From: an uncultured Bacilli bacterium
GTDB taxonomy: Bacteria; Bacillota_I; Bacilli_A; RF39; UBA660
Direction of reading: 5' to 3'
DNA: 64,000 nt
Assembly (NCBI GenBank): GCA_949505625.1
Contig: CATBQD010000005.1
Location: 3,046 to 67,045, forward strand
Part shown: piece by piece, positions 6,526-42,916 of the stretch
How positions within the stretch are numbered: the first letter of the stretch is position 1
How the letters are laid out: every line of letters begins with the position of its first letter
The notes under the pieces: model-generated
What the model was told of the DNA's origin: nothing
Database searches by the model: none
Seen by the model: the letters and a program-made list of their open reading frames with translations, nothing else
Position numbers and translations under genes: made by a program

Positions 6526-6527
6526 TT

Positions 6528-10813: not shown

Positions 10814-12496
<1,683 letters not shown>

Positions 12497-24228: not shown

Positions 24229-24768
24229 TTAATAGTTTGTAGCTCTTAACTCAAAATATGCTTGTGGGTGAGCACAGATTGGACAAACTTCAGGTGCTTT
24301 TTCTCCAAAATGAACATGTCCACAATTACGACATACCCACATCATTTTTTCTCCTTTTTCAAATACTTTGCCTTCTTTGATGTTTGCTAATAACGCTTTA
24401 TATCTTTCTTCATGTTCCTTTTCAATTTTTGCAACCCCTTCGAAAAGGAATGCAATTTTATCAAATCCTTCTTCATGTGCTACTTTGGCAAACTCTGCAT
24501 ACATTTCTGTCCATTCATAGTTTTCTCCATTAGCAGCATCTTCTAAGTTTTCAATTGTTGATGGAACTTCGTCCTCATGTAATAGTTTAAACCACATTTT
24601 AGCATGTTCTTTTTCATTTTTTGCTGTTTCTTCAAAAATAGCTGCGATTTGTTCATATCCTTCTTTTTTGGCCTTTGATGCATAATAAGTATATTTATTT
24701 CTTGCTTGGCTTTCTCCAGCAAAAGCCGCCATTAAGTTTTGTTCTGTTTTTGATCCTTTTAAATTCAT
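24229..24768 (-). CDS. rbr: rubrerythrin
   Basis: ferritin-like ExxH pairs plus C-terminal rubredoxin CRNCG…CPIC. Confidence 0.9.
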
Positions 24769-25220
24769 ATTTCTTCCTTCTTTCTACATTGTTTACAAAT
24801 ACCAGTAAACAACAATTCATGAGATAGTATTCTATTACCACTAGTTTGTTCAAAAGTTTGCTCTAAACCATAAAACATATCTATTTTTAAATCAATAATC
24901 TTTTTACATTTAAAACAATACATATGATCATGAGGCTCTATTTTATCATAATGGGCTTCATTACCTATATTTGATATTTTTCGTATATAACCAATTTCCA
25001 CAAGTTGATTCAGATTACGATAAACAGTGCCTAAACTAATATTTGGAATTTGCTTTCTCACATCCATATAAATTGTTTCTACTGTTGGATGATCATAGGA
25101 ATTCTTGATTCGATTGTAGATACATTCTCGTCTATCAGAATATTTCAATATATCACTTCCTAAATAGTAATGATTACTATTTCTATTTATCATTATAAAT
25201 TTATTTTGAAAATTTGTCAA
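24765..25220 (-). CDS. perR: Fur-family regulator, PerR-like (operon with rubrerythrin)
   Basis: [22 protein letters not shown] motifs. Confidence 0.75.
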
Positions 25221-25298
25221 TAATTTTCAAACTTATTATTGTTTTATCAAAAATTTTATTTATTTTTATTTTGTGATATGATAAATATAGGTGATTTT

Positions 25299-25634
25299 AT
25301 GATAAATAATATTGGAATTGATATAATAGAAAATGAAAGAATTGAAAAACATATATCAAGTGAATTTATAAATATGGTTCTCACTCAAAATGAAAAAATC
25401 TTATATTTCTCTAAAATTGGACATAAGAAAATTGAATTTTTATGTGGAAGATTTGCTGCTAAAGAAGCAATTATAAAAGCTGTTAATCATTTGGAAAATC
25501 CTCATTTTTTAGATATTGAAATTTTATCACAAAAAAATGGCGCTCCAATCGCCACTTTTAAAAATTATAAACTAATAGTATCAATTGCCCATGAAAAACA
25601 TTATACAATTGCGCAAGCTATTCTTTTAAACTAG
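25299..25634 (+). CDS. acpS: holo-[acyl-carrier-protein] synthase
   Basis: MINNIGIDIIENERI … GRFAAKEA; the ORF-finder start at 25239 is probably too early. Confidence 0.8.
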   Translation: MINNIGIDIIENERIEKHISSEFINMVLTQNEKILYFSKIGHKKIEFLCGRFAAKEAIIKAVNHLENPHFLDIEILSQKNGAPIATFKNYKLIVSIAHEKHYTIAQAILLN

Positions 25635-25638
25635 TATG

Positions 25639-26559
25639 TTAATTGACTAGTTTATTTTTTATAATTTCATAAATATGTTTTGCATCTAATCCATTCATCT
25701 CTAATAATTGTTTATGTGTTCCATAACCAGTTGCAAAACAATCTTCAAGTCCTATTTTTATCAATTTTGTTGACAAGTTATTTTCGGCAATGATATCAGC
25801 AATACTACTTCCAACTCCGCCAATTTTATTATGTTCTTCTACTGAAAAAATAACATGATTCTTTTTGCATTCTGCTATAACAGATTGTTGATCAAATGGT
25901 TTGATAGTTGAAACATTAACAACTTCTATTTCAATTCCTTCTTCTTTTAATTTATGAATTGCTTCTAACACTTCACTTATAATGCTTCCTGTTACAAAGA
26001 CAGCTGCTCTATTTCCGGTTTTAATTATATTGTTTTTTCCAAGTTCAAAAGAAGCCTCACCATCATAAATTTCGATTTCATTACTCATTCCCATCCGAAT
26101 ATAAACTGGCCCTTTGATTTGATATGCTGCATTTACACAACATTCTAACTCCTTTGGAGAACAAGGAGACAAAATAGTTAAATTTGGAATTGCTTTTAAG
26201 GCTGCAATATCTTCTGTTGTGTGATGTGTAGAACCGAGTGTTGACCAAGAAAGTCCACAACCCATTCCAACCAGTTTTACATTTTGGTTTTGAAGACACA
26301 CATCATTTCTAATAAATTCATAAGAACGATAAGCAAGAAAGGCACTAGTAGTATATACGAACGGGGTCTTACCACAACTAGCTAAACCAGCTGCTGCTCC
26401 GATTTTATTATTTTCGCTAATACCAAAATTAATAACTTGATCAGGAAATTCCCTAGCAATCATTTCATCATAGTCTGTTCCACTATCAGATAAACAGGAA
26501 ATCACATTTTTATCACTTTTTAATAATTTATATAATGAATTTACATAACTTTTCTGCAT
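25639..26559 (-). CDS. transketolase, C-terminal (pyrimidine-binding) subunit
   Basis: typical two-gene split tkt; overlaps the N-terminal subunit gene by 19 nt. Confidence 0.9.
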   Translation of the reverse strand: MQKSYVNSLYKLLKSDKNVISCLSDSGTDYDEMIAREFPDQVINFGISENNKIGAAAGLASCGKTPFVYTTSAFLAYRSYEFIRNDVCLQNQNVKLVGMGCGLSWSTLGSTHHTTEDIAALKAIPNLTILSPCSPKELECCVNAAYQIKGPVYIRMGMSNEIEIYDGEASFELGKNNIIKTGNRAAVFVTGSIISEVLEAIHKLKEEGIEIEVVNVSTIKPFDQQSVIAECKKNHVIFSVEEHNKIGGVGSSIADIIAENNLSTKLIKIGLEDCFATGYGTHKQLLEMNGLDAKHIYEIIKNKLVN

Positions 26560-27374
26560 GCTGTAATTTCCTCCTCACTAATGCCTAATTCTGCCATAAA
26601 TGTCTTTAGTTCTCTTTTGTTAGGAAGTCTCCAATGCCATCTTGGATCATTCTCTATAATTGATACACCTTTTCCTTTTATTGTATTTGCTAAGATTACA
26701 AGTGGTCTATCTGTTTCGTTTCCTTTTAAAAATACTTGATCTAATGCATCTACATCATGCCCATCCACTTCTTCTACTACCCATCCAAATGCCTCAAAGC
26801 GTTCTTTCCAAGAATGAATTCCCATTACATTTTCTATTGAGCCCATTTTTTGGATTTTATTACAATCTACAATCGCAATTAGATTATTTAGATGTTGATG
26901 TGCTGCGAACATAACCGCTTCCCATATTGTTCCTTCTTCGCATTCCCCATCACCTAATAATACGTATATTTTTTCTTTTTTTTGATCAATCTTTTTTGCC
27001 AAGGCCATTCCTACTCCGAGCGATAATCCATGACCTAAAGAACCTGTAGTAGCTTCAATGCCTGGAATATTTGGTATACAAGGTTCTCCGCCTAATACGC
27101 TTCCTGGCTTGCAAAATGAGTTTAAAAAGTTCAAATCAAAATATCCAACATAATAAAGCATTGTATAAAGTGCTAAACTACCATGACCTTTACTTAATAT
27201 AAGACGATCACGATTCTCTAAATTTGGTTTTCTCGAATCATAATTTAAGTTTTGGTGTACATATAAGCTATACAAAATTTCAACGATTGAAAAGGCTGAA
27301 GCAATATGCGCTATATTAACAGAATAACCTGTTAAAAATATTTGTTTTCGTAATTTTCTCAATTCTTGTTCCAT
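26541..27374 (-). CDS. transketolase, N-terminal (TPP-binding) subunit
   Basis: GHGSLALY, GSLGHGLSLGVGMA, GDGECEEG. Confidence 0.9.
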   Translation of the reverse strand: MEQELRKLRKQIFLTGYSVNIAHIASAFSIVEILYSLYVHQNLNYDSRKPNLENRDRLILSKGHGSLALYTMLYYVGYFDLNFLNSFCKPGSVLGGEPCIPNIPGIEATTGSLGHGLSLGVGMALAKKIDQKKEKIYVLLGDGECEEGTIWEAVMFAAHQHLNNLIAIVDCNKIQKMGSIENVMGIHSWKERFEAFGWVVEEVDGHDVDALDQVFLKGNETDRPLVILANTIKGKGVSIIENDPRWHWRLPNKRELKTFMAELGISEEEITACRKVM

Positions 27375-27383
27375 AAGTTTCTC

Positions 27384-28229
27384 CTATCCAAATAATGTGA
27401 TTGTTTCTGAATCAAGCCCTGAACCACCTAGATATGGCATTTCATTTAACAATTTCATATCTTCGCTTGATATCTCAAAATCAAATACATTTAAATTATT
27501 TTTCATTCGTTCCAAGTTTTTACTTTTAGGAAGAGGCAAAACTCCATTCTGTAAACACCATTTTATACAAAGCTGTGCTATAGTAATTTGATATTTATTT
27601 GCGATCTCTTCTAATTCTTTAATTTTTAACATTTTCCCTGAACCAAGTGGACTCCACGCTTCTACTAAAATTCCTTTGTCCTCACAATATTTTCTAATTT
27701 CTTCCTGATTTTGTCCTATATGCATTTCTACTTGGTTTACCATTGGTATAATTGTAGCACTTTTCAGTAACTCTTCTAATTGATTTACTTTAAAATTACA
27801 AACACCTATTGCTTTCACAAGTCCTTCTTGATACAAATATTCCATTGCTTTCCAAGTTTCTTCATTAATTTTTTCCCAGTCCTTGTGAACAGCTTTCGAT
27901 GCTGGCCAATGAATCAAATACAAATCTAAATATTCACAATCTAGATTTTCTATTGTTTTTTTACACGCTTTTATAGTACTTTCATATCCACGATCTTCAT
28001 TCCATAATTTTCCACTTATAAAAATTTCTTTTCTAGAAATTCCAGATTTTTTTAGACCTGCACCAATCATTTGTTCATTTCCATATGCAAAAGCTGTATC
28101 AAATAGACGATACCCACACTTTACTGCATTCTCAATAATCTCAATTGTTTCTTCTTTATTCTTTAGTCTCCAAGTTCCATATCCTATCAAAGGAATTCTT
28201 TGACTATTTGACAGTTCATAATAATCCAT
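27384..28229 (-). CDS. aldo/keto reductase
   Basis: YRLFDTAFAYGNE, LIHWP. Confidence 0.85.
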   Translation of the reverse strand: MDYYELSNSQRIPLIGYGTWRLKNKEETIEIIENAVKCGYRLFDTAFAYGNEQMIGAGLKKSGISRKEIFISGKLWNEDRGYESTIKACKKTIENLDCEYLDLYLIHWPASKAVHKDWEKINEETWKAMEYLYQEGLVKAIGVCNFKVNQLEELLKSATIIPMVNQVEMHIGQNQEEIRKYCEDKGILVEAWSPLGSGKMLKIKELEEIANKYQITIAQLCIKWCLQNGVLPLPKSKNLERMKNNLNVFDFEISSEDMKLLNEMPYLGGSGLDSETITLFG

Positions 28230-29353
28230 TATTCTTCTCCATTCATTATCTTAGTAATTGTTTCTTTTGTTAAATCTACTTGATCATTCCAATTTGGTAA
28301 TAATCTGTTCCAAGAATCATATTTTTTATCATTTCTTCTATCAGGTAAATTATAGTGTTCTTTTAAATATTGAGTTAAAAAATCAGTATATTTATCTGCT
28401 CCAAATATATTTACATGATTTTCATTATAAAAATCAGTATCAAAATTTAATTGCATTTCTTTATTATAGTCATTTGCATCTAAGAAATCAAAGCCTGCTT
28501 CTTTTACTTTTCTTTCTACGAAATTAAAATTCTCTTTATGAGCTTCTGTTTCTTCATAAGGTGAAACAATAAATAAATATTTATGATTTGTTGTTTTCAA
28601 AAATGTCAAAAGCTCATCTAATATTTTTACTGTATCTTCTTCCATTGGAGTTACTTTATCTGTTTTAAATTCATATTCTACAATTGAATCTACTTTCGGC
28701 ACAAAGTAGAACCCTTTAAGCGGATTTTCGTATAAATGAAGCATTTTCTTTACTGCTGCACGATAATCAACCCCTGCTAAACTTCGATGATATTTTATAA
28801 TATCAAAATGATAAGACAATGTATCTTCTTTCAATATTTTTGGCACATATTTTTCAATAAATTCTGCTTTTTCTAATGAAAATGGGGTGCCTGTAAGAAA
28901 GTTACGATAAGCTACTTCTGTTGGCGGCTGATCTTTATCCCTGTATTGAAAAGCTCTGGCATCTATTATAATAATTTCTGGATTTTGATACTTTAATACC
29001 TCTTTCACTAAATAAATATAAGCTTCTGCTTGTATTGTATTAGCTCCAAAATTATAAGAGGCAATTCCTTCCTTCTCATAAGAACGTAGGGGTTCCCAAT
29101 AGACAAAATTGGCACTTCCTCCAATATATACCATATCCAATGAATTCTTTTTTTCTCCATAAAATCCTGCAATATTATCTAAATCTACAGAAGAGGGCTT
29201 CAAAATATATGTCAGTGTTGTAAATATAATCATGAATATGATAGCAAATGTAACAATTTTAAAAATTGGAACAATATGTTTTCTTATATTATTCATATTA
29301 AAAACCTCCATAAATAAAATCGCTTGCATTATATCCTGGACCATACGCTCCAT
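28229..29353 (-). CDS. DltD-like / SGNH-type accessory protein of the MBOAT acylation system (membrane-anchored)
   Basis: N-terminal TM, position directly downstream of the MBOAT gene as in dltB-dltD; GGS and ENHVN (DHHW-like) segments; the true start probably lies downstream of the 56-nt overlap. Confidence 0.4.
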   Translation of the reverse strand: MERMVQDIMQAILFMEVFNMNNIRKHIVPIFKIVTFAIIFMIIFTTLTYILKPSSVDLDNIAGFYGEKKNSLDMVYIGGSANFVYWEPLRSYEKEGIASYNFGANTIQAEAYIYLVKEVLKYQNPEIIIIDARAFQYRDKDQPPTEVAYRNFLTGTPFSLEKAEFIEKYVPKILKEDTLSYHFDIIKYHRSLAGVDYRAAVKKMLHLYENPLKGFYFVPKVDSIVEYEFKTDKVTPMEEDTVKILDELLTFLKTTNHKYLFIVSPYEETEAHKENFNFVERKVKEAGFDFLDANDYNKEMQLNFDTDFYNENHVNIFGADKYTDFLTQYLKEHYNLPDRRNDKKYDSWNRLLPNWNDQVDLTKETITKIMNGEE

Positions 29354-30815
29354 ATATCAAAATTAAAGAGATTATGATAAATAATGTGATCCATCGAAAC
29401 CATAAGTTTTGCTTTGAAAACCAATCTAAAACATTTATATTTTTATATTTTAAATAATCCACAACTATTACAATAAAACTTGCGAATAATATAATTGCTG
29501 GTAATTGTGGAAGCTCGTATTGCAATCCAGCACGTGGCAATTTAAAAATGTTTTTAATAATTATTAAGCTAGACCCTAAATTCGGAGCACAGGCAAATAA
29601 CCAAATAAAACACATTAATAAGAATGTTCTAAATGACTGAAATAAACGAAAACTAAAACAATCAGTTGTCATTTGCAATTTTTTTGTAATATAATGAATC
29701 TTTTCTTCAAATATTTCGCCCATTGTTAAATAAATCCAAGGAAGAATTCCAGCTGCAAAAATATATTTATAAGAAGCTCCATGCCACAATCCAATTAAAA
29801 ACCATAATATAAAAATTGATAATAATGTCGGAATTCTCTTTCCAATCTTTTTCCCAAATTTATTTTTACACTTTTTACCTAATTTTTGAAAAAAGGAAGA
29901 TTTTAATAATGGATACATAATATAGTCCTTTGCCCAGACTCCTAGGGATATATGCCATCTTCTCCAAAATTCAGATAAATTTTTGGAAAAGAATGGACTT
30001 TCAAAGTTCTCTATCAGCGTAATTCCATACATTTTAGAAGCTCCATTTACAATATCCATACATCCAGAAAAATCTGCATATATTTGTACAGCATATAACA
30101 TTACAGCAATAATAATATAGTACCCAGTGAAATCATTATATTGAGAAAAAACTTGTCTTACAAAAGGAGCTAATAAATCCGCAATCACTAATTTTTTCAT
30201 CAAACCATACATAATTCGATAGAACCCTTGAAATAAATTATTCCAGTCAAAATTTTTTGGTTCAAAAAACTCTTTCTTCATATCATTGTATCTTACAAAT
30301 GGTCCAGAAATCATAATTGGATAATAACTTGCAAATAATGCGTACTTTAATATATTTTTTTGTGGCTCATAGGCGCCCCTATAAACATCAATTACATACC
30401 CAGTTAAAGATAATGTATAATATGAAAGTCCTAATGGAGCTAATAAAGATAGTGTTCCAAAATGAAAATTCATATGAAATAAATTTCCGAATGCATTTAA
30501 AGTAATTGGAAAAATATTAATATATTTTAACACACATAAAATTGATAAAATTGAAAACAAAGTTACAAATAACGTTAATTTCTTTTTCTTTTCTGTTCTA
30601 CACCTATTGTATAAATAATTTGTACCAATATAAGTTGTTAAAATCCCAAATAATAAATACAACAACAATTTCCACTCACATGATAATAAAAAAAACAAAA
30701 TACTTGCAATTAGTAAAATTCCCCATCTATATTTTTTAGGGCAGACATAATAGCAAATAACTGTTATTAATAAAAATATTAAAAACGAAAATGACACAAT
30801 TGACATCTCTCTCAC
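29298..30815 (-). CDS. MBOAT-family membrane O-acyltransferase (DltB/AlgI-like)
   Basis: WRRWHISLGVW and LWHGASYKYI (conserved His) motifs; 505 aa polytopic. Confidence 0.85.
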   Translation of the reverse strand: MREMSIVSFSFLIFLLITVICYYVCPKKYRWGILLIASILFFLLSCEWKLLLYLLFGILTTYIGTNYLYNRCRTEKKKKLTLFVTLFSILSILCVLKYINIFPITLNAFGNLFHMNFHFGTLSLLAPLGLSYYTLSLTGYVIDVYRGAYEPQKNILKYALFASYYPIMISGPFVRYNDMKKEFFEPKNFDWNNLFQGFYRIMYGLMKKLVIADLLAPFVRQVFSQYNDFTGYYIIIAVMLYAVQIYADFSGCMDIVNGASKMYGITLIENFESPFFSKNLSEFWRRWHISLGVWAKDYIMYPLLKSSFFQKLGKKCKNKFGKKIGKRIPTLLSIFILWFLIGLWHGASYKYIFAAGILPWIYLTMGEIFEEKIHYITKKLQMTTDCFSFRLFQSFRTFLLMCFIWLFACAPNLGSSLIIIKNIFKLPRAGLQYELPQLPAIILFASFIVIVVDYLKYKNINVLDWFSKQNLWFRWITLFIIISLILIYGAYGPGYNASDFIYGGF

Positions 30816-30819
30816 TCCA

Positions 30820-31239
30820 TTATTCTAAAAATCCAATTTTCATAATTCCTCTAGAAACCTTTTCTCCAGAATTATCTTTAATGATAAATTTAACTACAAT
30901 TCTAGAAAAACGATCATCCTTTTCTAGTACCTTTCCGATTATAGTTAAAGGGCATTTAGATAAAAAAACTGGTTTTACAAAATTTATTTCTACACTATGA
31001 ATTAAACTTTTCTCTCCTGGCAAATAAACTCCAGCCAAAGTTGAAAGTGCTGAAGCTGTTAACAACCCATATACTACTTTTTCAGAATAGCCTTTTTCTT
31101 TTGCAAATTCTAAATCATTATGTAATGGATTAATATCATTAGTAATCATAAGGAATTGTTTCATTTTTGTTTCATCAAGTTCAAAAACAAAACTTTCCTC
31201 ATGACCAATTTCTAATTCTTTAAATTTAAAGTGATTCAT
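30820..31239 (-). CDS. MaoC-like hot-dog fold dehydratase/thioesterase
   Basis: 139 aa; NDINPLHND motif. Confidence 0.7.
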   Translation of the reverse strand: MNHFKFKELEIGHEESFVFELDETKMKQFLMITNDINPLHNDLEFAKEKGYSEKVVYGLLTASALSTLAGVYLPGEKSLIHSVEINFVKPVFLSKCPLTIIGKVLEKDDRFSRIVVKFIIKDNSGEKVSRGIMKIGFLE

Positions 31240-31475
31240 TGTCTTTCTAATATAATGTCAACCATTTCACCAACGTTTTTCATAGAAGTTACTTCACTCA
31301 TATTAAATTTTATTCCAAAACGGTTTTCAATCGCCACAACTAAATTAATATGTTCTAAACTATCCCAGTCTTCTATATCGTCTGCTGTTGTTTCATCAGT
31401 AACATGAATACTTTCATCATCAAATACTTCCTCAAATACCTCATCTAATGCTTTAAAAATTTCTTCTCTTGTCAT
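31236..31475 (-). CDS. acyl/peptidyl carrier protein (DltC-like)
   Basis: 79 aa, DSLEHINLV phosphopantetheine-attachment Ser. Confidence 0.75.
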   Translation of the reverse strand: MTREEIFKALDEVFEEVFDDESIHVTDETTADDIEDWDSLEHINLVVAIENRFGIKFNMSEVTSMKNVGEMVDIILERQ

Positions 31476-31477
31476 AA

Positions 31478-33259
31478 TTATTCCTCCACCTTTATAAATT
31501 TATTTTTCTTTTCATAAGTTTCATTAATTTCAAATTTCCAGATAGCATTGCCTTCTGCATCTTCACTAATTTTATCAAATCCTTGCAATCCATAAAACTC
31601 TTTTACCATACTGTTTTTAGCAGTTGGATAATAATAACCATATATTTCTTCAATTCCACGCTTTTTACATTGTTCTACCAAGGAATCCATCATTGCATAT
31701 TCCATATCTCTTTTTAAAACTCGGCAACTCATAATCCATAAGTCAATGTCCAAACGCTTTTTATCTTGCTTTCCAATTACAACAGATACAACTCCATTAT
31801 CCCCAAATTTATCTTCTAGTTTTCCATATAAAGTTATATGTAATTGATCTTGAGCAGTCTCTTCTATTTCTGCTTGAGTATAACGTTTTGTTGTCAAATT
31901 AAATTGATTACTTTTATTCGTTAATTGAGCAATTCTAGCCATATAAACAGGTGTAAACCGCCCAATCTCTGCCTCCATATTGAGAGATTTTAAATAATCA
32001 TCATAATTTGTGAATGATTTTTGTAACTGATTTCTTTTTGCATTTTCTTTATACATTTCGGTTTTATTGAAATCATCTTTTGAAAAATTCGTAACTTCAA
32101 AAAATCCTGAGTGATCTAACATTTCAATATAGCGATATGGAATTTCCATATTTGGGGTTGATACCTCTGGAAGCTCCTGATTGATAATGGCACGCTCTGC
32201 TGGATTATCATCTACAAAAACCAAACTATCAGTTCCTATATTTAATTCTTGAGCAATTTCTTTGAAATTATTGGATTTGGGATTCCAATTTGCTTTTATA
32301 ACAATAAAATCTTCTGGCTTTAATATAGAATCAATATGCCTTAGACCTGCTATGGCATTACTTTCTTCATTCTTACTATTAATATTCAAAATAATTCCCA
32401 TTTTCTTATGCTCTAAAATATATTTTTGAAAATCTGTATAAACTTGGCCTTCTGATGTTTCTTCTCCTAACATCAGATTTTCTACACCATCATCTCCTAC
32501 AATTCCCCCCCATAATGTATTATCTAAATCTAATACAAAACCTTTTTTATTTTTTCCTAATATTGCTTTTATAATATTTGCAACTTGAAAAGATAAACTT
32601 GGTATTGCAGGCACTGCTACTGCATATTTATACATATACCAATAAAATGGGTCTGCCCATTTATCTAATCCATACAAACTAGATTGGTAATTAATATCAT
32701 TTATAAAAAAATTTTGTTTTGTTTCTGCATATTCCGCAAATTTCATATTTAATTTTGTTATAAAATTGATTTTTCCATGGATATCTGTAGCATCTTTATT
32801 TCCAAATAATCGATATGTTGGATAATCAAAATTATTTTGAATAATGGAGCAGTGATAAGTTTGAAATAACTTCTCCCATATTGCTTCATAGCGTTCATAT
32901 TCACTTTCTAATACAGCATTCACTTCTGCTTCTGTATCTCCTAATTCTGGATAATGAATAATATTTTTATTTGTTGTATGAATAAATATAATATCAGGTT
33001 TAAATGTTTCTAATTCTTGATTTGGAAACATTGCATCTTCAAAATATTTATTATATTCTGATTCATAAAAAGAGGCTTTTATTCCATAATTTAATAAAAA
33101 TAATTCTAATATTAACTTAATATCACTTGTAGTAGATCCACCTAAAATAGCAATATTTTTTGTAATAAATTGCTTATTGCTTGCTAGTAATTCTTTCTTT
33201 AGAGATTTTTTCTTTTTTAAAATATAATCACTATCAAAGGGATATTCCAACTCTTTCAT
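31478..33259 (-). CDS. FkbH-like HAD-IIIC family protein with N- and C-terminal extensions
   Basis: VLDLDNTLWGGIVGDDG (HAD motif I, IIIC type), INSKNEESN, VFVDDNPAE. Confidence 0.65.
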   Translation of the reverse strand: MKELEYPFDSDYILKKKKSLKKELLASNKQFITKNIAILGGSTTSDIKLILELFLLNYGIKASFYESEYNKYFEDAMFPNQELETFKPDIIFIHTTNKNIIHYPELGDTEAEVNAVLESEYERYEAIWEKLFQTYHCSIIQNNFDYPTYRLFGNKDATDIHGKINFITKLNMKFAEYAETKQNFFINDINYQSSLYGLDKWADPFYWYMYKYAVAVPAIPSLSFQVANIIKAILGKNKKGFVLDLDNTLWGGIVGDDGVENLMLGEETSEGQVYTDFQKYILEHKKMGIILNINSKNEESNAIAGLRHIDSILKPEDFIVIKANWNPKSNNFKEIAQELNIGTDSLVFVDDNPAERAIINQELPEVSTPNMEIPYRYIEMLDHSGFFEVTNFSKDDFNKTEMYKENAKRNQLQKSFTNYDDYLKSLNMEAEIGRFTPVYMARIAQLTNKSNQFNLTTKRYTQAEIEETAQDQLHITLYGKLEDKFGDNGVVSVVIGKQDKKRLDIDLWIMSCRVLKRDMEYAMMDSLVEQCKKRGIEEIYGYYYPTAKNSMVKEFYGLQGFDKISEDAEGNAIWKFEINETYEKKNKFIKVEE

Positions 33260-33365
33260 ATTCCACCTTCTACTTTCATATCCAAAAACATTATAACACA
33301 GAATGTGGCTATTGGCCTATATATTTTAACGTTTTTTTCTTAGAAAATAGATACAGGTGGTATTT

Positions 33366-33608
33366 ATGAAGGCAAAAGCATATATCCATGATGACGAATA
33401 TTACTATTCTATTATTAGAAAAAATATTAAATTTTATCGTTTAAAATTACATTTAACACAACAAGATTTAGCAGATATGACAGAATTATCACGAGAATAT
33501 ATATGTGACATCGAAAACGAGCGTCGAAATAAACATTTAACTATTGCTGTTTTAGGAAGAATTGCTGAAGCATTAAATATTGACATCACAAATTTTTTTA
33601 CATCTTAA
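33366..33608 (+). CDS. XRE-family HTH regulator
   Basis: LTQQDLADMTELSREYICDIENERR. Confidence 0.6.
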   Translation: MKAKAYIHDDEYYYSIIRKNIKFYRLKLHLTQQDLADMTELSREYICDIENERRNKHLTIAVLGRIAEALNIDITNFFTS

Positions 33609-33630
33609 AATATTCTTTTTCTCATAATAC

Positions 33631-33656
33631 AAAAAAGCATTTATTAATGCTTTTTT
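33631..33656. terminator. bidirectional intrinsic terminator
   Basis: AAAAAAGCATTTATTAATGCTTTTTT. Confidence 0.6.
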
Positions 33657-33662
33657 ATCAAT

Positions 33663-34724
33663 CTATTCTGGATTTCCATCCAATAGAATTTCTAGCTTAT
33701 TTGTAATTTCACAATTATACTCTTTTAAATCATTAAACTGTTTTTTTTCTTTCTTTTTATATTCTTTTAGGTTAGCAATAATATCATTTGTTCCTTTTGT
33801 ATTTGGACAATATTTCTCTAAATGTTCTGGAATGATAATATCTAATCCTATCGCTAAGGCTTCTAGTATTACCATGCCTTGCCCTTCATACCTACTTGAG
33901 AGGTAAAACAAATCCATTTTTTTCAAATATTTAAAAGGATTTTTCTGATTTCCTAAAAAAGTTATAAAATCTTTAATTTCTAAATTTTCTGCCTGTTCTT
34001 CTAAGCTCTTTCTCAATGGGCCATCTCCAATTAAATACAAATGAAAATCATTTCGGTAATCAGTTAATTTTTTTATGTTATTTAGCATGATGTCAATTCC
34101 TTTTTGATGACATAGACGACCTACTGTCACAATATTTATTTTACTGCTATCAACCACTAACTCACAGTCTTCTTCCATTTTTTCTTTTATTTCATTTGTA
34201 TCAATATAATTTGGTATTACAAAATACTTTTTATTTGAATCATAATACAAAGTTTTAAAAGAATCTAGTGCTCCCTTTGAAACTGCACAAAATGTATTAA
34301 AATATTGATATTTTCGTTTGAAAAAGAAATGTAAAATTTGATATTTCTTCTCTTCCTTTAATTTAATAGGAATATCATTATGTATCCATATTGCTGTAAT
34401 TTTGGCATTCGCCTTTAGTGCTCCTAATGCAGTATGCATTTGATAACTATCAAAATCAATTGCTACATCATAATGTTTCTCTAATATATTTAATTTTAAA
34501 ATTTTTTTATTAATATTAAAAAATATAAATTTGTGAAACGAAGTTGGTTTTTTCAAATAAATAACATTTATATTGGGCGGTAATTCATAAAAATTATCAC
34601 GATCAAATAAGTATAAATCAATATTATATTTCTTATGATCAATGTTTCTTAATAGATTGACAATTGACTTTTGGATTCCTCCAACATGCAAATTGTCTGT
34701 AAATATCGCAACGTTTTTCATCAT
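33663..34724 (-). CDS. glycosyltransferase family 4 (GT1/GT4 fold)
   Basis: EGQGMVILEALAIGL. Confidence 0.8.
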   Translation of the reverse strand: MMKNVAIFTDNLHVGGIQKSIVNLLRNIDHKKYNIDLYLFDRDNFYELPPNINVIYLKKPTSFHKFIFFNINKKILKLNILEKHYDVAIDFDSYQMHTALGALKANAKITAIWIHNDIPIKLKEEKKYQILHFFFKRKYQYFNTFCAVSKGALDSFKTLYYDSNKKYFVIPNYIDTNEIKEKMEEDCELVVDSSKINIVTVGRLCHQKGIDIMLNNIKKLTDYRNDFHLYLIGDGPLRKSLEEQAENLEIKDFITFLGNQKNPFKYLKKMDLFYLSSRYEGQGMVILEALAIGLDIIIPEHLEKYCPNTKGTNDIIANLKEYKKKEKKQFNDLKEYNCEITNKLEILLDGNPE

Positions 34725-34737
34725 AGCTTCTCCACTT

Positions 34738-35724
34738 CTAAAATTTATATTTTTTATATAATTTCAAGTAAACTTGACTATTTGCTTTTAACAATACTTT
34801 CTTTATTGCTTTTTTGAAATTGTAACAATAAATATCAGAGCTATTTAAATTACTTTTAATCTCTTCTAATTTCTGCTTTAAATCAGTATCATTTAAGAAT
34901 GTTAACTTCGATAACATTGCCTCTAAGCTATAACTTCTTAGAAGTTTTCCTTTTATACTATCTCCTTTAATCTCTTTCATATGAATACAATAAAGGAAAT
35001 ACATATCATCTACTCTCTTTTTCATTTTCTCATATTGTGTCTCTGCCATAATAGAGCCCTCTCGCTCTACATAATTATATCCTATATATGGAAGACAACT
35101 AATTGTTTCGGCTTTATATAAAATAATTGGAATTAGTCCATAATCTTCATGAATTCTTTTTGGAGCAAACTCAAATTTATTTTTTTTATAAAAAGAAGCT
35201 TTATATACATATCCCCAAGGTACTTCCAGTGCTCTTTTTTCCATAATTCTTTTTAAAAGTTCAACATCATCATTGCATTCTTCTACAAAAACAGTTTGAA
35301 TAACAGTTCCATCAGATTTTACATCTTGACTATTAATTCTTATTACATCAGGTGCTCCTTTTTCTAAAATATGTGCTGATAATTTTTCTAATAAATATGG
35401 ATCTAAATAGTCATCAGAATCCACAAATAAAATATATTCTCCGTTAACATATTTTACTCCTTCATTTCGTGCTGATGCAACTCCACCGTTTTCTTTTTTT
35501 ATATATTTAATCAACTGTGGATATTGTTCTTGAAATGCTAATATTATTTTTTCACTATTATCTGGGCTTCCATCATTAACAATAATAATTTCATATTTTT
35601 CTTTTATATTTTTCTGATTTACTAAAGATGATAAACATTTTTCTAAATAATCATAAGTGTTATAAACTGGGACAACAATACTAAATTTAACCATTTCTTT
35701 TATCCTCTCTATTAAGATTTGCAA
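34738..35724 (-). CDS. glycosyltransferase family 2
   Basis: FSIVVPVYNTYDYLEKCLSSLVNQ, DSDD. Confidence 0.85.
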   Translation of the reverse strand: MQILIERIKEMVKFSIVVPVYNTYDYLEKCLSSLVNQKNIKEKYEIIIVNDGSPDNSEKIILAFQEQYPQLIKYIKKENGGVASARNEGVKYVNGEYILFVDSDDYLDPYLLEKLSAHILEKGAPDVIRINSQDVKSDGTVIQTVFVEECNDDVELLKRIMEKRALEVPWGYVYKASFYKKNKFEFAPKRIHEDYGLIPIILYKAETISCLPYIGYNYVEREGSIMAETQYEKMKKRVDDMYFLYCIHMKEIKGDSIKGKLLRSYSLEAMLSKLTFLNDTDLKQKLEEIKSNLNSSDIYCYNFKKAIKKVLLKANSQVYLKLYKKYKF

Positions 35725-38083
35725 CTATTTGCTTATTATATATTTCATCTTTGATTTCGCTTGACTCTTCCCCATTGTCAACTTCATTTACATATTTATT
35801 TTCAATTTTCACTTTTTTCGTTTCTTTTCTTAAAAACCATTCATATTCCAAATCAATATGTCCTAAATCAATCGCTTGATATCCTTTTTGATATAAATCA
35901 TAAACTAAAACTTTAGCAGTTGGTCCTAGAGATATTAATATCAAATATTTCTTACTATACTTGCAAACTTCTTCTAATATTTCTTGATATTTTTCATAGG
36001 CATTTTGAGTTGGACAAAGAATTCTTTTTAAGCTTTTCACTCCATCGAATAAGTCATTTCCAACTCCTAACCTTGAATATTCACCTTCAACTAAAATGAC
36101 ATCTCTATTTTTATAGATTTTTTTTATTTTGTCAAAAATATAATCACAATTTTCTTTTTCTTTATACCTCAAATACGGTCTTGATAAAAATGCATTATAA
36201 TAATTTCCATTACAATATAAATTCCAATTCTTGCTAGTTTTTAATAAGCTAATAGACCAAAATATCTTCTCTTCTTTTACATATTGATTTAGTCCATTAA
36301 ATATTTCTGGTACAGCAATCAATAATCGTTCATCTGATTTCAGCCTTAAAATTTCTTCCAATTTCGTTCCTAATTCTTGATTATAGGTTTGAAACTTCAA
36401 GGATTTTCCATTAATAATATCTATTTCTCCATCTCCATATCTTACAATAGATGCTTTTTTACTAATGATATCATCTATTGTTTGATCAATACTGTAGACA
36501 TTAATATTTTTATTTTTGACACGTAATACATAATATAACGCAGATATATAATAAAGAATCTTTCTTTTTATTTTAAATACAAATTTATTATTAGAGAATC
36601 TTGCTACTACACCTCGGAAATCTTCATAAAATAAATATAAAAATATAAATAAGAAAATGGAAACGGCAAAAAAAACAATAATTGTTACTAAAAACCATTG
36701 AACCAGATTAGTTATATTGCCATATATATTAAGAAAATAAATCATAGAAATCAAACCACCACTTATAAATAACGAAGATACAGTCATTACAAGAAAATAA
36801 ATCGAATTATGCCCAAATTCATTAAAAGCAATTTTAGCTTTTATTGGTAGCAACATAATAGTACTTGTGATTGCAGTTGCTAACAAAATTCCAAAAATCC
36901 CGAGCCATCTAATAAAAAGTAATGACAATACAATATTACTAATTGCTTGCACTAAACTGAGCCATTTTATTTTCTTATAATATCCTTTTACTTCTACAAT
37001 AACATGTAAAGATTTTAATATTACATTTAGCCATAAAATAAACCCAAACAAAATACAAATTTCAATGCTAAAATAATAGCTTTCTTTTATAAATATACTC
37101 ACGAAAGAAGCAGCAGATACACTATATGTCACTGTGCATATCAAAGCGACAAAATTCATAACTAATATAAATTGTTTAAAAATTCTATATCCTTCTTCTT
37201 TGGGAACATTTTTATTATTAACAACAGCACCTAAGGAGCCTTTTACTCCTGTTACAAAGTTAAGCAAAAATAAATGAATATAGTTATTAATAAGATTATA
37301 GATACTATAAGTAGATGTATCTTTTAATCCCATTTGATTGGCAATAATAATAGAATCCGTTTTTTCATTTACAATTTCAGAAATATTATTGACAACTATA
37401 TCTTTTGCAGATTTTGCAACCGTCCGATCTCTTCCTTTATATTTTTTTAAATAAGGATATTTTTTCTTAGTTATTTTTATTAGGAAGTAGGACCCAACCA
37501 AATTAGCTATTACACTCAACAATATTACCAAAATTAAATTTACATGGTTAATAATTAAAATAAGTTCAATTACTTTAAATATAATTTGTTGAGTAGTTTT
37601 GACTAAATTTATAATATAAATGTTCTCATTTACAATAAGTAAATTTCTATATGGTAGTCCATATAAATAATCTGCTAAGAAATCTATAGCATAAAATATC
37701 ATAATAACAATAATATAATAAATTGGAACACTATTATTTTTAATAAAGAAAGGTAATACAATAGAAATTAGAATTCCCATTATGAAAATAAACATTCCGC
37801 TTTTAAAATACAAATGCCTGCTTTCATTAAATACTTCTGTAATTTTTTTCTCGTCTTTTTCTTGAAAATATTTATATAGTTTGACATTAGTAGCAGCTCC
37901 AAAACCTAATTCTGCCAATGTTAAATATGCATATATTTGAGTAATTAATTGAACAATTCCATTTAAATCATCACCATAAACATCTATAAAAAATTTAAAT
38001 TTTAAGAAGCCTATAATTGTGATGATTATAGAAGGAACTATAGAAGTTATAATATTTAACATACTACGCTTTGTCTTTTTCAT
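35687..38083 (-). CDS. Wzx-like polysaccharide flippase (MOP superfamily) fused to a ~300-aa C-terminal soluble domain (RYGDGE motif; possibly a GT-D/DUF1792-like glycosyltransferase)
   Basis: ~12-14 TM helices in the first ~480 aa; C-terminal IVRYGDGEIDI. Confidence 0.6.
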   Translation of the reverse strand: MKKTKRSMLNIITSIVPSIIITIIGFLKFKFFIDVYGDDLNGIVQLITQIYAYLTLAELGFGAATNVKLYKYFQEKDEKKITEVFNESRHLYFKSGMFIFIMGILISIVLPFFIKNNSVPIYYIIVIMIFYAIDFLADYLYGLPYRNLLIVNENIYIINLVKTTQQIIFKVIELILIINHVNLILVILLSVIANLVGSYFLIKITKKKYPYLKKYKGRDRTVAKSAKDIVVNNISEIVNEKTDSIIIANQMGLKDTSTYSIYNLINNYIHLFLLNFVTGVKGSLGAVVNNKNVPKEEGYRIFKQFILVMNFVALICTVTYSVSAASFVSIFIKESYYFSIEICILFGFILWLNVILKSLHVIVEVKGYYKKIKWLSLVQAISNIVLSLLFIRWLGIFGILLATAITSTIMLLPIKAKIAFNEFGHNSIYFLVMTVSSLFISGGLISMIYFLNIYGNITNLVQWFLVTIIVFFAVSIFLFIFLYLFYEDFRGVVARFSNNKFVFKIKRKILYYISALYYVLRVKNKNINVYSIDQTIDDIISKKASIVRYGDGEIDIINGKSLKFQTYNQELGTKLEEILRLKSDERLLIAVPEIFNGLNQYVKEEKIFWSISLLKTSKNWNLYCNGNYYNAFLSRPYLRYKEKENCDYIFDKIKKIYKNRDVILVEGEYSRLGVGNDLFDGVKSLKRILCPTQNAYEKYQEILEEVCKYSKKYLILISLGPTAKVLVYDLYQKGYQAIDLGHIDLEYEWFLRKETKKVKIENKYVNEVDNGEESSEIKDEIYNKQIVANLNREDKRNG

Positions 38084-38200
38084 AATATATCACATTCCTT
38101 TCTGGATGATATTTAAAAATATATTGTAAGAAATGGAAAAAAGTTTATAAAAACATAAAACCAAAGACTTACAACTTTTTGATAAAAGATTATAAAATAA

Positions 38201-39184
38201 TTATTTTCTATGTTTTAATAAAGTAATATTATAAAAATAATATTTAATAACTGCTTTTAATTTATATTTGAATTTTACATTTTTAAAAATAAAGTCATGT
38301 AAATATCGTTTCATATTGTTTTTCAATTGTTTATAAATATCTTGAGAATCACGATATTGATCACTAATTCTTAATCTAATACTAAGCTCATAATTTAATT
38401 CAAAGATAAAATAATAATACGTAGGAAGATAATCTTTTCTCAAATTTTCTATTAATGGAATTGCATTTTCATATGCTGTCAAAGCAGTTAGTTTTCCTTT
38501 ATTAAATGTGCTATTTACTAAAGAACCATTTCTTTGTAAATAATTATATAGAATAGAATTTGAAAAATAAATTTTATTGCAATAAGAAAGGTAATGAATG
38601 ACAAATTCTAAATCTTCAATATGCTTAGTGGCTTCATTAAAGCATATCTTATTTTCTTGGATAAGACTATTTTTAAATACTTTATTCCAAACATAACCTC
38701 TTACTGCTTCATTTTCAAAAAAAAGTGGAAGGGATTCTACTTTACTGACTAATTGACTTTGTTCAATACATTTTTTTATTTCTATACTATGATTGTTTTC
38801 ATACACGTTCTGATAACTATATATAAACAAATCATAATTATTATTTTGTTCCATTATTTTTTCTAATAAGTTCTGTTCTACAAAGTCATCAGAATCTACA
38901 AATAAAATGTATTCCCCTTTGGCTTCTTTAAGCCCAGCATTACGGGCAGAAGAAATTCCTCCATTTTCTTTTTTTATATATTTTATCAAATCATGGAACT
39001 TTTCTTTATACTCTAATATAATTTTTTCACTTTGATCTGGGGATCCATCATTCACTACTATAATTTCATAGTGAAAATTTCCTTTTTGTCTTACCAAAGA
39101 TTCTAAACACTTCGGCAAATATTTTTCTACATTATAAACTGGAACTATGATACTAAATTTCATTACATAACTCCTCCCTATCAC
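38201..39184 (-). CDS. glycosyltransferase family 2 (paralog of 34738..35724)
   Basis: FSIIVPVYNVEKYLPKCLESLVRQ, DSDD. Confidence 0.85.
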   Translation of the reverse strand: MIGRSYVMKFSIIVPVYNVEKYLPKCLESLVRQKGNFHYEIIVVNDGSPDQSEKIILEYKEKFHDLIKYIKKENGGISSARNAGLKEAKGEYILFVDSDDFVEQNLLEKIMEQNNNYDLFIYSYQNVYENNHSIEIKKCIEQSQLVSKVESLPLFFENEAVRGYVWNKVFKNSLIQENKICFNEATKHIEDLEFVIHYLSYCNKIYFSNSILYNYLQRNGSLVNSTFNKGKLTALTAYENAIPLIENLRKDYLPTYYYFIFELNYELSIRLRISDQYRDSQDIYKQLKNNMKRYLHDFIFKNVKFKYKLKAVIKYYFYNITLLKHRK

Positions 39185-40508
39185 AAGCTATAAATAGGAA
39201 ATATATATAGGCAATCAGTTGAACTTCCAAAACGTTTATAAACAATCCAAAAAAGGCAAATATTAAACTACTAATAATGGATATCATTTTTTTCTTTTTC
39301 CACTGTTCTTTTAAAAGCAATATAAATGCAATACCTATAAATATAAATCCAAGTAATCCTGATTCTACTAATATCGCAATATATTGATTATCTGCATACT
39401 CAAGTCCTCGCTTTTTTGCTTCTTCATCTGGATTCAAAAAATTTGAAGCTGTTAAGAAAGAACTAAACCCAGTCCCAATCAAAACATCATTTTTCATCCT
39501 ATCAATTCCATAATTCACAATTGCCAAACGGCCATTTTGTAAGCTAGCAGTTAAAAATTCTGAATTGCACATTGCCAATAGTCTTGAAAAAAAGGTTTCT
39601 CCATTTACCATATCTTGCATATTTGGTCCTGTTGGTTTTTTATCATCATCTTTATCCACCACGGGACTTTTTTCATCATCAATGTTACTTCTATACAGGG
39701 CATTTGTTTTATAAGATCCCAAAGTTAAAACCAAACAACAAATACCAACAATTGATATTAATTTAAAATTATTCCAAGTCGCTTTCTTCTGAAATATATC
39801 CTTTAAATTTTTTAAAATATATAATGTTATAATACCAATAAAACAGATTAAAGCACTTCTTGAAATAGAAAGAAAAACGCCAGTAAATATCAATGTATAT
39901 AACATAATGTTCTTAATTGAAAAATTCGCATTTCCAAATCTATAATTATATAATAATACAAATAGTAAGAAAAAAGCATATACATTAGGATTACAAATCA
40001 AACTATAGGCCCTAATAAAATTATCAGCATATACGATTTCTCCTGCCCATTGTGATGGAAACAAATAATTCTTTTGAAAAATAACTTCTATAATTGAAAA
40101 TATGACTAATACAATTGTGATACCATTTAAAATATGAAGCATTTTTTTTATTTGTTCAGCCTTAAAAGGAATACTTCTTATAATCATAAATAATAAATAA
40201 TAAATTCCTAATGCTTTTATTTGATAAATAATTGCAATCAATTTTTGATGGTGTAATAAGCCTGAAATAGTTCCTACAACTAACATCAGCGCAAAAAAGA
40301 CATCATATAATTTTATTTTAATTTTTCCTTTCAAAAATGAAACTGCAAACCATACAGCAACTACAACAGAAGGAATTAATGTCACTATTGATGATATATA
40401 TGTACTAATAAATTCTTTAAATATTAAAATCAACATCATAGAAATTGTTAAAATTATTGTTATTTGATTATTTTCATTATTAAAAATTTTATTTATTTGT
40501 TCTTTCAT
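39153..40508 (-). CDS. O-antigen polymerase/ligase family (Wzy-like) membrane protein
   Basis: polytopic with large external loop; NGRLAIVNYGIDRMKNDVLIGTGFSSF. Confidence 0.55.
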   Translation of the reverse strand: MKEQINKIFNNENNQITIILTISMMLILIFKEFISTYISSIVTLIPSVVVAVWFAVSFLKGKIKIKLYDVFFALMLVVGTISGLLHHQKLIAIIYQIKALGIYYLLFMIIRSIPFKAEQIKKMLHILNGITIVLVIFSIIEVIFQKNYLFPSQWAGEIVYADNFIRAYSLICNPNVYAFFLLFVLLYNYRFGNANFSIKNIMLYTLIFTGVFLSISRSALICFIGIITLYILKNLKDIFQKKATWNNFKLISIVGICCLVLTLGSYKTNALYRSNIDDEKSPVVDKDDDKKPTGPNMQDMVNGETFFSRLLAMCNSEFLTASLQNGRLAIVNYGIDRMKNDVLIGTGFSSFLTASNFLNPDEEAKKRGLEYADNQYIAILVESGLLGFIFIGIAFILLLKEQWKKKKMISIISSLIFAFFGLFINVLEVQLIAYIYFLFIACDREELCNEI

Positions 40509-40644
40509 TTTCTAACCTCGCATATATTATATATTTTACTATGTAGTACATAATTAGTCAAGAATTTACAAGATAAACAAAATAGGAAAATAAAAAAACA
40601 GTTGCTAGAAATAGACAATTGTTTTTCAACTACAAATTATGATT

Positions 40645-41250
40645 TTATTTTTTAGGATTGTAAAACAGTGATATCACTTTCGAAAATTCAAATAAAATAA
40701 TATTACTTTTGTTCACTGCAAAGCCTTTTCCCATTGCTTTCCCACCTATTGTTAGTGCTGCAATTAATGCAGTTACTATCAAGCTGACTAACAATGTATC
40801 TAAATTTAAGGAGTTTGATATAGTAATTGATAAAATAGCGCCTGTGGAACCCGATATGATTCCACAAATGTCTCCTATTACATCATTGCAAAAAGAGGAA
40901 ACCTTATCTGCACTTTTTTTAAATTTTACAGCTACTTTAGCACCTCTTACTTTTCTAGCAGCCATTGAATGAAAAGGAATTTCATCGGCAGCCGTTACTG
41001 CTACTCCCACCATATCAAATAAAATTCCTATTCCTATGAATAAAATTAATATAATAATTCCTATCCAAAGATTCACTTTAGGCATAACCGTTTCAGAAAG
41101 TGACGAAAATACAATGGACAATGTAAAAGCAATTATCGATATTTTCAAAATCCAATTATAATCAACCAGTTTTTTTTCCTTTTTATTTTTTTTGTTTTTA
41201 TTTAATTCATCAATATATTTTCCCATTATACACCTCATAAAAATATACAA
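40645..41250 (-). CDS. small 4-TM membrane protein with DxxxD motif (OapA-like candidate)
   Basis: four hydrophobic helices, NDVIGDICG (DxxxD); directly downstream, on the same strand, of the GC-rich non-coding region. Confidence 0.4.
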   Translation of the reverse strand: MYIFMRCIMGKYIDELNKNKKNKKEKKLVDYNWILKISIIAFTLSIVFSSLSETVMPKVNLWIGIIILILFIGIGILFDMVGVAVTAADEIPFHSMAARKVRGAKVAVKFKKSADKVSSFCNDVIGDICGIISGSTGAILSITISNSLNLDTLLVSLIVTALIAALTIGGKAMGKGFAVNKSNIILFEFSKVISLFYNPKK

Positions 41251-41289
41251 AAAAAATGGCTATTTATATAGTAAACTTTACGTCTTAAG

Positions 41290-41900
41290 GTCAAGTAGGA
41301 TTTCCCTTACTTCAAACTCTTTCGTTACCAAAAGAGGGGTTCCCCATTATAGAAGTAAATATATCGTCACCGAATATATGACTTGATTGCCACTGAGTAC
41401 GCACTGCAATCCTATATAAATAGACACTCTAGGAGATTTCCTCGACAACTCTGTTTATTATTAGTTCCTTTTTGCAAGTATTGTTTCATATTGCAATCAT
41501 TTTAGTTGGTTGGCCAATCAACTAAAAGTCGTTCAATAATCCCCAAATACTCACTCAGGACAAGCTACACTACTCGTAACTTATCATCACATAGTAGGTT
41601 CAATCCTAAGTCGTCATTTCTCCATCAACTTAACGTGTATAGGGAAATAACAAGATTAGGTCTCCAAGATAGATGGGTCAGATCCTGTATGCCATTACAG
41701 TTGCCCAGCTATCCATACCTCCCAGCACTCACCCCAAACTGGGCGTAAGAAGCAAGCACCAGAAGTTTCACAGATATGCTCTTTAGTGACTTTTTAGGGC
41801 CACCTTCATAATAAACGAAATTGACTAGAATAATGTGCCATTTCAATTTACATTTCAACATTCTACCATATTTAAAATAGAATGTCAAATTGTTCAATCA
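41290..41900 (-). ncRNA. candidate large structured ncRNA (OLE-RNA-like, ~610 nt); strand inferred from the downstream gene
   Basis: ~640 nt without protein-like ORFs, local GC ~42-45% against ~27% background, many local inverted repeats; only S/R-rich junk ORFs. Confidence 0.35.
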
Positions 41901-41919
41901 ATACATTATATGCTTATAC

Positions 41920-42906
41920 TCAATATTTATTGCTTTTCTCTTTAAATGGGAATAATAATAACGCCAAATAAGTAATTGGAATTCCTATTATTGCGGCAAT
42001 GATGTAAGCAATTAATTTATGTAATTGCAACAAATCAATAATAATATATACACAACTTAGTTGAATTATAAAATTTGGAATATAAGAAATGCAGAACTTT
42101 ATAAACTTTGATATAGTAAGTTTTTTATCATGAAATGTAATATAACTATTCAATAAATAAGAAATGATTAAACTTGTCATATATCCTACTACAAAAGCTA
42201 ATGTAGCATTTTTAATCATTAATGAATATAAATAAGAAAGTAATATACCATTAAAAGTATTTAAACATCCAACAAATACAAAACGAATAAATTTGGGTGT
42301 TAAAAATGTATGCTTTAATTTTTCTATTTTTGTTTCTTGATATTCGTAATAAGGCATCACCACATTTTTTTTAACTTTAAACCCTTTTTTAGAAATTTCT
42401 ATCATTGGAAGATCTGCACTACTATCTGTATACATTTCTTCTACTACGATTTCAGGATATTTTTCTTTCAATCTTTTTACCTTTTCTTCCCCATGACAAT
42501 TTTCTTTCAAAAATTTTCCCGTTTTTATGTCTACTACAGAAGCAATTAAATCTTTTACTTTTAACTTTTTTATCGGTAATTCTAACAAGAACTCGGGAGA
42601 AGCCGAAATGATAATATCATTTAAATGTTCTTTTTTTAAATACCATGGTTTGATTTTTGTATAATGATTATTCCAAAATTCTTTTAATAACCCATCTATA
42701 TCATGTAAGTCCTTTAAAAAGCAGAAGAGAACTTCTTTCATTTCTGTTTTTGTTTTAAGGCCCAAAATATAAAGTCCAAAATACCAAAGTTGTTTTAGCC
42801 AATATTTACAAATCGTTTTTTTCTTTTGAAAACAAAACTTATAAAAATCAACTGAGGAATCTCCGTCATAGATAGTTCCATCAAAATCATAAGCAATTAT
42901 ATTCAT
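41920..42906 (-). CDS. HAD-hydrolase domain (DFDGTI) fused to a GtrA-like membrane domain
   Basis: N-terminal IAYDFDGTIYDGDSS, C-terminal ~4 TM GtrA-like segment. Confidence 0.5.
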   Translation of the reverse strand: MNIIAYDFDGTIYDGDSSVDFYKFCFQKKKTICKYWLKQLWYFGLYILGLKTKTEMKEVLFCFLKDLHDIDGLLKEFWNNHYTKIKPWYLKKEHLNDIIISASPEFLLELPIKKLKVKDLIASVVDIKTGKFLKENCHGEEKVKRLKEKYPEIVVEEMYTDSSADLPMIEISKKGFKVKKNVVMPYYEYQETKIEKLKHTFLTPKFIRFVFVGCLNTFNGILLSYLYSLMIKNATLAFVVGYMTSLIISYLLNSYITFHDKKLTISKFIKFCISYIPNFIIQLSCVYIIIDLLQLHKLIAYIIAAIIGIPITYLALLLFPFKEKSNKY

Positions 42907-42916
42907 TTATTTCACC

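Follow-up and report, generated by a model that had tools for sequence, protein, structure and literature searches.

The window, by which is meant the whole stretch of 64,000 nucleotides that was analysed, raises the question of what a long region without protein-coding genes does directly upstream of the gene for a small membrane protein, in the middle of a locus for cell-envelope glycans. According to the original prediction the region, put at about 640 nt and lying on the same strand as the membrane-protein gene, is a candidate OLE (ornate, large, extremophilic) RNA, and the protein is its partner OapA (OLE-associated protein A). The gap between the 201-aa open reading frame and the gene for a HAD-GtrA protein extends from 41251 to 41919 and thus measures 669 nt, or 693 nt if oapA begins at the ATG at 41226; the longest open reading frames inside it are 80, 64 and 62 aa, and all genes around it are on the minus strand, so that the general layout was described correctly. 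The GC content had been put at 42-45% against a background of about 27%. An enrichment is indeed found, but it is smaller than was thought: the GC content is 37.1% in the OLE match described below and 28.1% in the whole window, and 44% is reached in a single 200-nt interval only (41600-41799). No other 618-nt stretch in the 64 kb is richer in GC than the OLE match, which is in the top 0.3% of such windows. The features on which the argument turns are these:

41860..41888, minus strand: predicted sigma-70-type promoter of OLE, with 11 of 12 hexamer matches and an extended -10 TG

41857..41240, minus strand: OLE RNA gene of the full-length type, 618 nt, identified by its RF01071 match

41231..41236, minus strand: Shine-Dalgarno sequence GAGGTG of oapA, read directly from the sequence

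40645..41226, minus strand: oapA, stop codon included, 193 aa, assigned by motif, fold and synteny

40593..40627, minus strand: weak hairpin, rich in A and U, behind the oapA stop and with a U-run after it, centroid energy -5.6 kcal/mol

When the region is compared by Infernal with the Rfam model of OLE (RF01071), as had been proposed, a match of 419.4 bits is obtained at 41857..41240 on the minus strand, with a gathering score of 50, an E value of 4.2e-121 and coverage of model positions 1-616 of 616. It is the single Rfam match in 40000-43000 also at a permissive E value. Other large RNAs had been suggested for comparison, and ROOL, GOLLD, RNase P and tmRNA are absent from a scan of the whole window at gathering thresholds. 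Another large RNA family as the identity of 41240-41857 was therefore rejected, since OLE has no competitor at the gathering score in the whole window.

Besides OLE, the scan returns one T-box and two tRNAs in the rest of the 64 kb. The T-box leader (6566-6770, minus strand, 121.7 bits) is directly upstream of a gene for a class I tRNA synthetase of the Glu/Gln type (4888-6567, minus strand). The lysyl-tRNA synthetase encoded at 7164-8717 on the minus strand is also of class I (PF01921, E = 3.6e-113), a type that is uncommon in Bacillota.

The alignment to RF01071 shows how much of the RNA is preserved. The parsed alignment has identity at 212 of the 249 high-information (upper-case) consensus positions (85%), and 143 of the 159 consensus pairs (90%) are canonical or G-U, while 6 are gapped and 10 are non-canonical. 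The gapped pairs consist of one 4-bp hairpin and two other pairs, and this hairpin, at model positions 424-435, is the sole helix of the model that is missing outright. In 72 of the formed pairs both bases differ from the consensus, which is the signature of a conserved structure. Long invariant blocks of nucleotides are shared by the window and four relatives, and in the OLE family as a whole about 25% of positions are more than 97% conserved. Compensatory base-pair changes of this kind, which are many, speak against the reading that 41240-41857 is a degraded protein-coding pseudogene, a reading that the original prediction had itself raised. Open reading frames of 62-80 aa on both strands can be quoted in its favour, but the four longest in the gap have no Pfam match at E <= 0.01, and the covariance-model match spans the whole region. 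The pseudogene was thus rejected, and its probability is vanishingly small.

In length, in its major helices and in its conserved nucleotides the RNA resembles the full-length OLE of Halalkalibacterium halodurans (RF01071; PMC12265935, PMC11332333, PMC12286853), and from the coverage of the full model in 618 nt follows that it is of the full-length type, not one of the shortened variants of gut clades (PMC11332333). These variants have been described as variant 1 in TANB77 and variant 2 in RF39 (PMC11332333). The present host is like theirs, an uncultured gut member of the Bacillota known only from metagenome-assembled genomes, but here the RNA is unshortened, with the 616-position model contained in 618 nt and the P13 site for OapB present. 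The OLE of some relatives is 504-560 nt. In four closer relatives, with 65-88% OapA identity, Rfam finds OLE at 394-404 bits in a gap of about 700 nt before oapA. The same locus occurs in identical form in the independent assemblies GCA_965646415.1, GCA_948852825.1 and JGI 3300006168, and the identical and closest sequences are gut metagenome-assembled genomes named 'Bacilli bacterium', which means a host from the Bacillota; from the gut origin we infer that this host is anaerobic. It is an uncultured Bacilli bacterium with low GC content (28%) and, in contrast to H. halodurans, no extremophile.

Two sites at which proteins bind OLE can be compared in more depth. The OapB site has been defined crystallographically as the P13 GNRA hairpin with its bulge together with the P14.1 GNRA loop (PMC7936274). 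In the window, the tetraloop of the P13 hairpin is GUGA and one U is bulged (the alignment reads AUAUA-U-UCG-GUGA-CGAUAUAU), and the P14.1 loop is GUAA, a GNRA loop; both features agree with H. halodurans OLE. The predicted OapB site at P13 is, as judged from these letters, intact. The second site is the k-turn flanking P5, which binds OapC/YbxF (PMC9723947) and which was mapped here from the text of that paper, not from its figure. With this mapping the 5' strand of the k-turn, AUC-UGU-GA, fits, and in the 3' strand of P5 and the k-turn (41620-41632, minus strand) there is a G at position 1n, where an adenine is expected (A143 in H. halodurans numbering). On the same text-based mapping the 3' strand reads GUAUGGAU in the window and GUAUAGAU or AUAGAA in relatives, and position 1n is an adenine in most relatives and a U in two of them (L019 and L027). 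The substitution may point to a relaxation of selection at the k-turn within the gut clade of the window species, and OapC binding may not apply to this RNA. The missing 4-bp hairpin at 424-435 and, on this mapping, the G at 1n are differences from the H. halodurans RNA.

A Pfam scan of the 58 open reading frames of at least 90 aa in the 64-kb window finds no protein of the YbzG/KOW type (OapB), none of the YbxF/L7Ae type (OapC) and no bS21. All three are small (the bS21 gene in one of the sampled loci, L090, encodes 68 aa), so that open reading frames shorter than 90 aa could escape such a scan. Elsewhere in the window, pyrG (CTP synthase, 10895-12496, plus strand) is divided into two open reading frames by one in-frame TAA at 12005-12007. 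The break reads …IKAIT*ARENNIPFLGICLGMQ…, the frame being otherwise continuous, and the TAA may be explained by a sequencing error, by a nonsense mutation at strain level or by the gene being a pseudogene.

Consider now the protein. The full open reading frame, 40645..41250 on the minus strand, would give 201 aa, close to the roughly 200 aa first estimated. The ATG at 41226 is the likely start, giving 193 aa, since it follows the Shine-Dalgarno sequence GAGGTG by 4 bases and gives a protein of the same length as its closest homologues. Four membrane helices had been predicted, and four hydrophobic segments are found at residues 26-44, 55-73, 116-134 and 142-160 in the 193-aa numbering. The motif NDVIGDICG, also pointed out from the start, contains the DxxxD sequence as D115-V-I-G-D119, and N114, D115, V116, G118 and D119 are invariant in an alignment of 15 sequences down to 59% identity. 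DxxxD is distinctive for OapA, and CNNM domains lack it (PMC11332333).

The AlphaFold2 model of the protein has a mean pLDDT of 77.7. Its best fold matches in the PDB are the archaeal CNNM protein CorB (7M1T and 7M1U, both with probability 1.0 and a TM-score, normalised to the query, of 0.46-0.56) and the transmembrane domain of CorC (7CFF). No relative of solved structure turns up when PDB sequences are searched with a profile. A relationship to CNNM proteins has already been published for OapA (PMC11332333). The likeness to the Mg2+ transporters CNNM, CorB, CorC and MpfA (PF01595, the DUF21/CNNM transmembrane domain) is a resemblance at the level of the predicted fold only, and the window protein differs from them in having DxxxD and in having neither CBS nor CorC domains; CBS domains are excluded already by the length of 193 aa. 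For a few OapA homologues a PF01595 match is recorded as precomputed, and the window protein has none in hmmscan. On the strength of the model, the window protein is thus a distant structural relative of the CNNM transporters and not a member of PF01595. The presence of mpfA in genomes is reported to be anticorrelated with OLE.

There is no curated OapA model in Pfam or in NCBIfam. The window protein matches nothing in NCBIfam and has a sub-threshold DUF1189 match as its only one in Pfam, and family membership must therefore be shown by motif, fold and synteny. It has approximately 7,400 homologues in the databases, and the nearest of those with names belong to gut metagenome-assembled genomes labelled 'Bacilli bacterium'. 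The protein is similar to OapA in being small, in its four hydrophobic helices, in DxxxD, in the predicted CNNM-like fold and in the position of its gene right after ole, and the likeness to OapA of H. halodurans rests on motif, predicted fold and gene position, not on a direct sequence alignment. From DxxxD, the four segments, the predicted fold, the adjacency to ole and the linkage of its homologues to OLE, this 193-aa protein is identified as OapA, as predicted.

This linkage was evaluated in 80 species-representative genomes that encode an OapA homologue with 44-66% identity. OLE is upstream and on the same strand in 74 of the 80 loci, as it is in H. halodurans, where oapA is the next gene downstream. 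The median distance from OLE to oapA is about 46 nt, and it is at most 100 nt in 54 loci. The remaining six loci comprise one that is interrupted by a contig end and five (L007, L029, L053, L059 and L076) in which Rfam finds no OLE within 6 kb of the oapA homologue. In these five the homologue has 58-64% identity and is found at about position 6000, directly behind protein genes; their OLE would be either unlinked or lost. The linkage between ole and oapA is strong but not absolute.

How the RNA is transcribed bears on how it acts. The predicted promoter has its -35 hexamer TTGACA at 41888-41883, a 17-nt spacer, the extended TG at 41868-41867 and the -10 hexamer TAGAAT at 41865-41860, which ends three bases ahead of OLE model position 1. 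From this geometry the transcription start is expected near 41853. In four related species the -35 TTGACA is invariant and a -10 of the type TGnTAnAAT is present in each, while the sequence farther upstream diverges. This pattern supports a dedicated OLE promoter that is conserved in the clade, and such a promoter directly upstream sets the window copy apart from H. halodurans OLE. A terminator scan predicts none between the HAD-GtrA gene and OLE, nor between OLE and oapA. Since there is no terminator before OLE, read-through from the tagA-mnaA-HAD/GtrA genes is possible. Since there is none after it either, and the Shine-Dalgarno sequence begins 4 nt past the final base of the OLE match, with the oapA ATG 14 nt after the match end on the same strand, ole and oapA are most likely carried on one transcript. 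The hairpin at 40593..40627 is possibly a weak terminator. This assignment is uncertain: the hairpin is not called in the terminator scan, and the fold of the 111 nt after oapA has a z-score of -0.69, indistinguishable from shuffled sequence.

Probable co-transcription, with no terminator between the two and a ribosome-binding site only 4 nt past the match, is also what would be expected if 41240-41857 were no independent, trans-acting RNA but served oapA as an extended, structured 5' leader with a purely cis-regulatory role, in the manner of a riboswitch or attenuator. A leader of this kind could not tolerate a large separation from its gene, and in 14 of the 74 species with OLE the RNA and oapA are separated by over 300 nt, with a maximum of 5.8 kb. 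Furthermore, no expression platform, i.e., neither a terminator nor a sequestering hairpin, is seen in the window, and experiments on the family have established OLE as a stable, abundant component of a ribonucleoprotein particle (PMC12265935). Regulation in cis as its sole role is very improbable.

Finally, the RNA could be a decaying, non-functional OLE remnant left in the reduced genome of a gut bacterium. Reduced-genome gut clades do have shortened OLE variants, often without OapB and OapC (PMC11332333), and in the window the adenine at 1n is replaced by G and one small hairpin is absent. A remnant would hardly be full-length at 419 bits with 85% of the conserved positions and 90% of the pairs intact, next to an intact oapA with an invariant DxxxD and behind a promoter that is conserved between species. 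Moreover, relatives at 65-88% OapA identity keep OLE at 394-404 bits, which indicates purifying selection. With these observations taken together a remnant is scarcely credible, and 41240-41857 is almost certainly, on sequence grounds, the OLE RNA of an ole-oapA locus and an ordinary member of an already known family.

What the RNA would do can be modelled by analogy. OLE at 41857..41240 on the minus strand would be transcribed from its own extended -10 promoter, with oapA on the same transcript. An OapA dimer, with four helices and a CNNM-like fold, would then bind OLE and anchor it at the cell membrane, as in H. halodurans and in the cryo-EM structures; the RNA would itself dimerise, and small RNA-binding proteins may aid its folding or assembly. 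By the same analogy the ribonucleoprotein may help the cell to adapt to cold, short-chain alcohols, excess Mg2+ and poor carbon sources. The stoichiometry expected of the complex is two OapA proteins to one RNA, and an ole deletion in H. halodurans has reportedly been complemented in trans already. The model is taken from work on H. halodurans and from cryo-EM (PMC12265935, PMC11332333, PMC10898510, PMC12286853). In that organism OapA binds OLE and brings the RNA to the membrane, OapB and OapC are required for its function, and cryo-EM shows an OLE RNA homodimer that is proposed to span the membrane (PMC12265935, PMC10898510, PMC12286853).

It remains to account for the surroundings, which had been called unusual for a locus of this kind. 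The neighbours are genes for cell-envelope glycans and not of the folD/ispA/dxs type found with H. halodurans OLE, and they are arranged as follows:

44025-44759, minus strand: TagA/WecG-type glycosyltransferase, in the upstream block, given as context

42917-44020, minus strand: non-hydrolysing UDP-GlcNAc 2-epimerase (mnaA), in the upstream block, given as context

41920-42906, minus strand: HAD phosphatase-GtrA fusion, in the upstream block, given as context

24765..40508, minus strand: lineage-specific island for glycan and acyl modification, about 15.7 kb, from oapA to rubrerythrin/folD

The island contains genes for a Wzy-like protein, GT2, GT-D, GT2, GT4, HTH, FkbH, ACP, MaoC and MBOAT proteins, a protein without an assigned role, an aldo-keto reductase, a split transketolase and Fur. 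A 656-aa protein with six PASTA repeats, in which no kinase or transpeptidase domain is detectable, is encoded at 44916-46886 (plus strand), where the glycan locus ends and on the strand opposite to it.

The two sides of ole-oapA behave differently when close relatives are compared. On the upstream side, one relative (L087) has WecG, the epimerase and HAD-GtrA in common with the window at 66-85% identity, another (L089) shares WecG and GtrA, and a third (L088) has other envelope-glycan genes in this position. On the downstream side the comparison is between 24765-40508 of the window, 8589-10475 of L087 and 8704-11972 of L088. Immediately behind oapA, L088 has the gene for rubrerythrin, which shares 91% identity with window 24229-24768, and after it folD (75%, window 23263-24105); in L087 an IS transposase takes the place of the Wzy-to-GT4 block of the window. 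An island of about 16 kb in the window species and an IS transposase at the same junction in L087 mark the junction between oapA and rubrerythrin/folD as a hotspot of gene-content change. As judged from gene order, ole-oapA borders a conserved block of the tagA type and has come to be enclosed in a lineage-specific island of glycan genes.

When 13 window neighbours of oapA were searched for by tblastn in the 80 species loci, essentially none was found within 6 kb. The polysaccharide context thus appears to be confined to close relatives, and there to the upstream side, and is not general. None of the classic ole neighbours dxs, ispA, xseAB, argR and recN is beside ole in the window, and folD is about 16.5 kb downstream. 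A weak DXP_synthase_N match at 25639-27374 on the minus strand belongs to a transketolase whose N-terminal and C-terminal subunits have a gene each, and a reading of this segment as dxs was rejected in favour of a split tkt.

The part of the original prediction that concerned the polysaccharide setting therefore holds for the upstream block, which close relatives share. Its unusualness is to be put less strongly, since cell-wall genes are known ole neighbours (PMC12265935) and the downstream part is a lineage-specific insertion. The cell-wall genes dltE and yqhY, and folD, are already among the recorded neighbours of ole, and earlier authors have suggested that OLE is connected with the cell wall (PMC12265935, PMC10898510). 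The glycan context fits this idea and is not evidence for it. One could go further and suppose that in the lineage of the window the OLE-OapA particle is linked in function to the production or export of a glycopolymer similar to wall teichoic acid. Across 77-100% OapA identity, ole-oapA comes right after tagA/mnaA/HAD-GtrA (or WecG-GtrA), on the same strand and with no terminator between. Such a coupling is unlikely; if true, it would give a concrete pathway to the speculation that domain 2 of OLE senses the cell wall (PMC12265935).

Among conserved non-coding RNAs of bacteria that still lack a biochemical explanation OLE is one of the largest, and for this reason every well-characterised copy is of some value. 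With more than 2,800 representatives of the family catalogued, to which gut metagenome-assembled genomes contribute many (PMC11332333), the present locus adds to it modestly, by showing that an ole-oapA pair is recognisable from the raw sequence alone. Two minor additions are the apparent clade-conserved promoter just 5' of OLE and the association, at the level of the lineage, with glycan genes of the teichoic-acid type.
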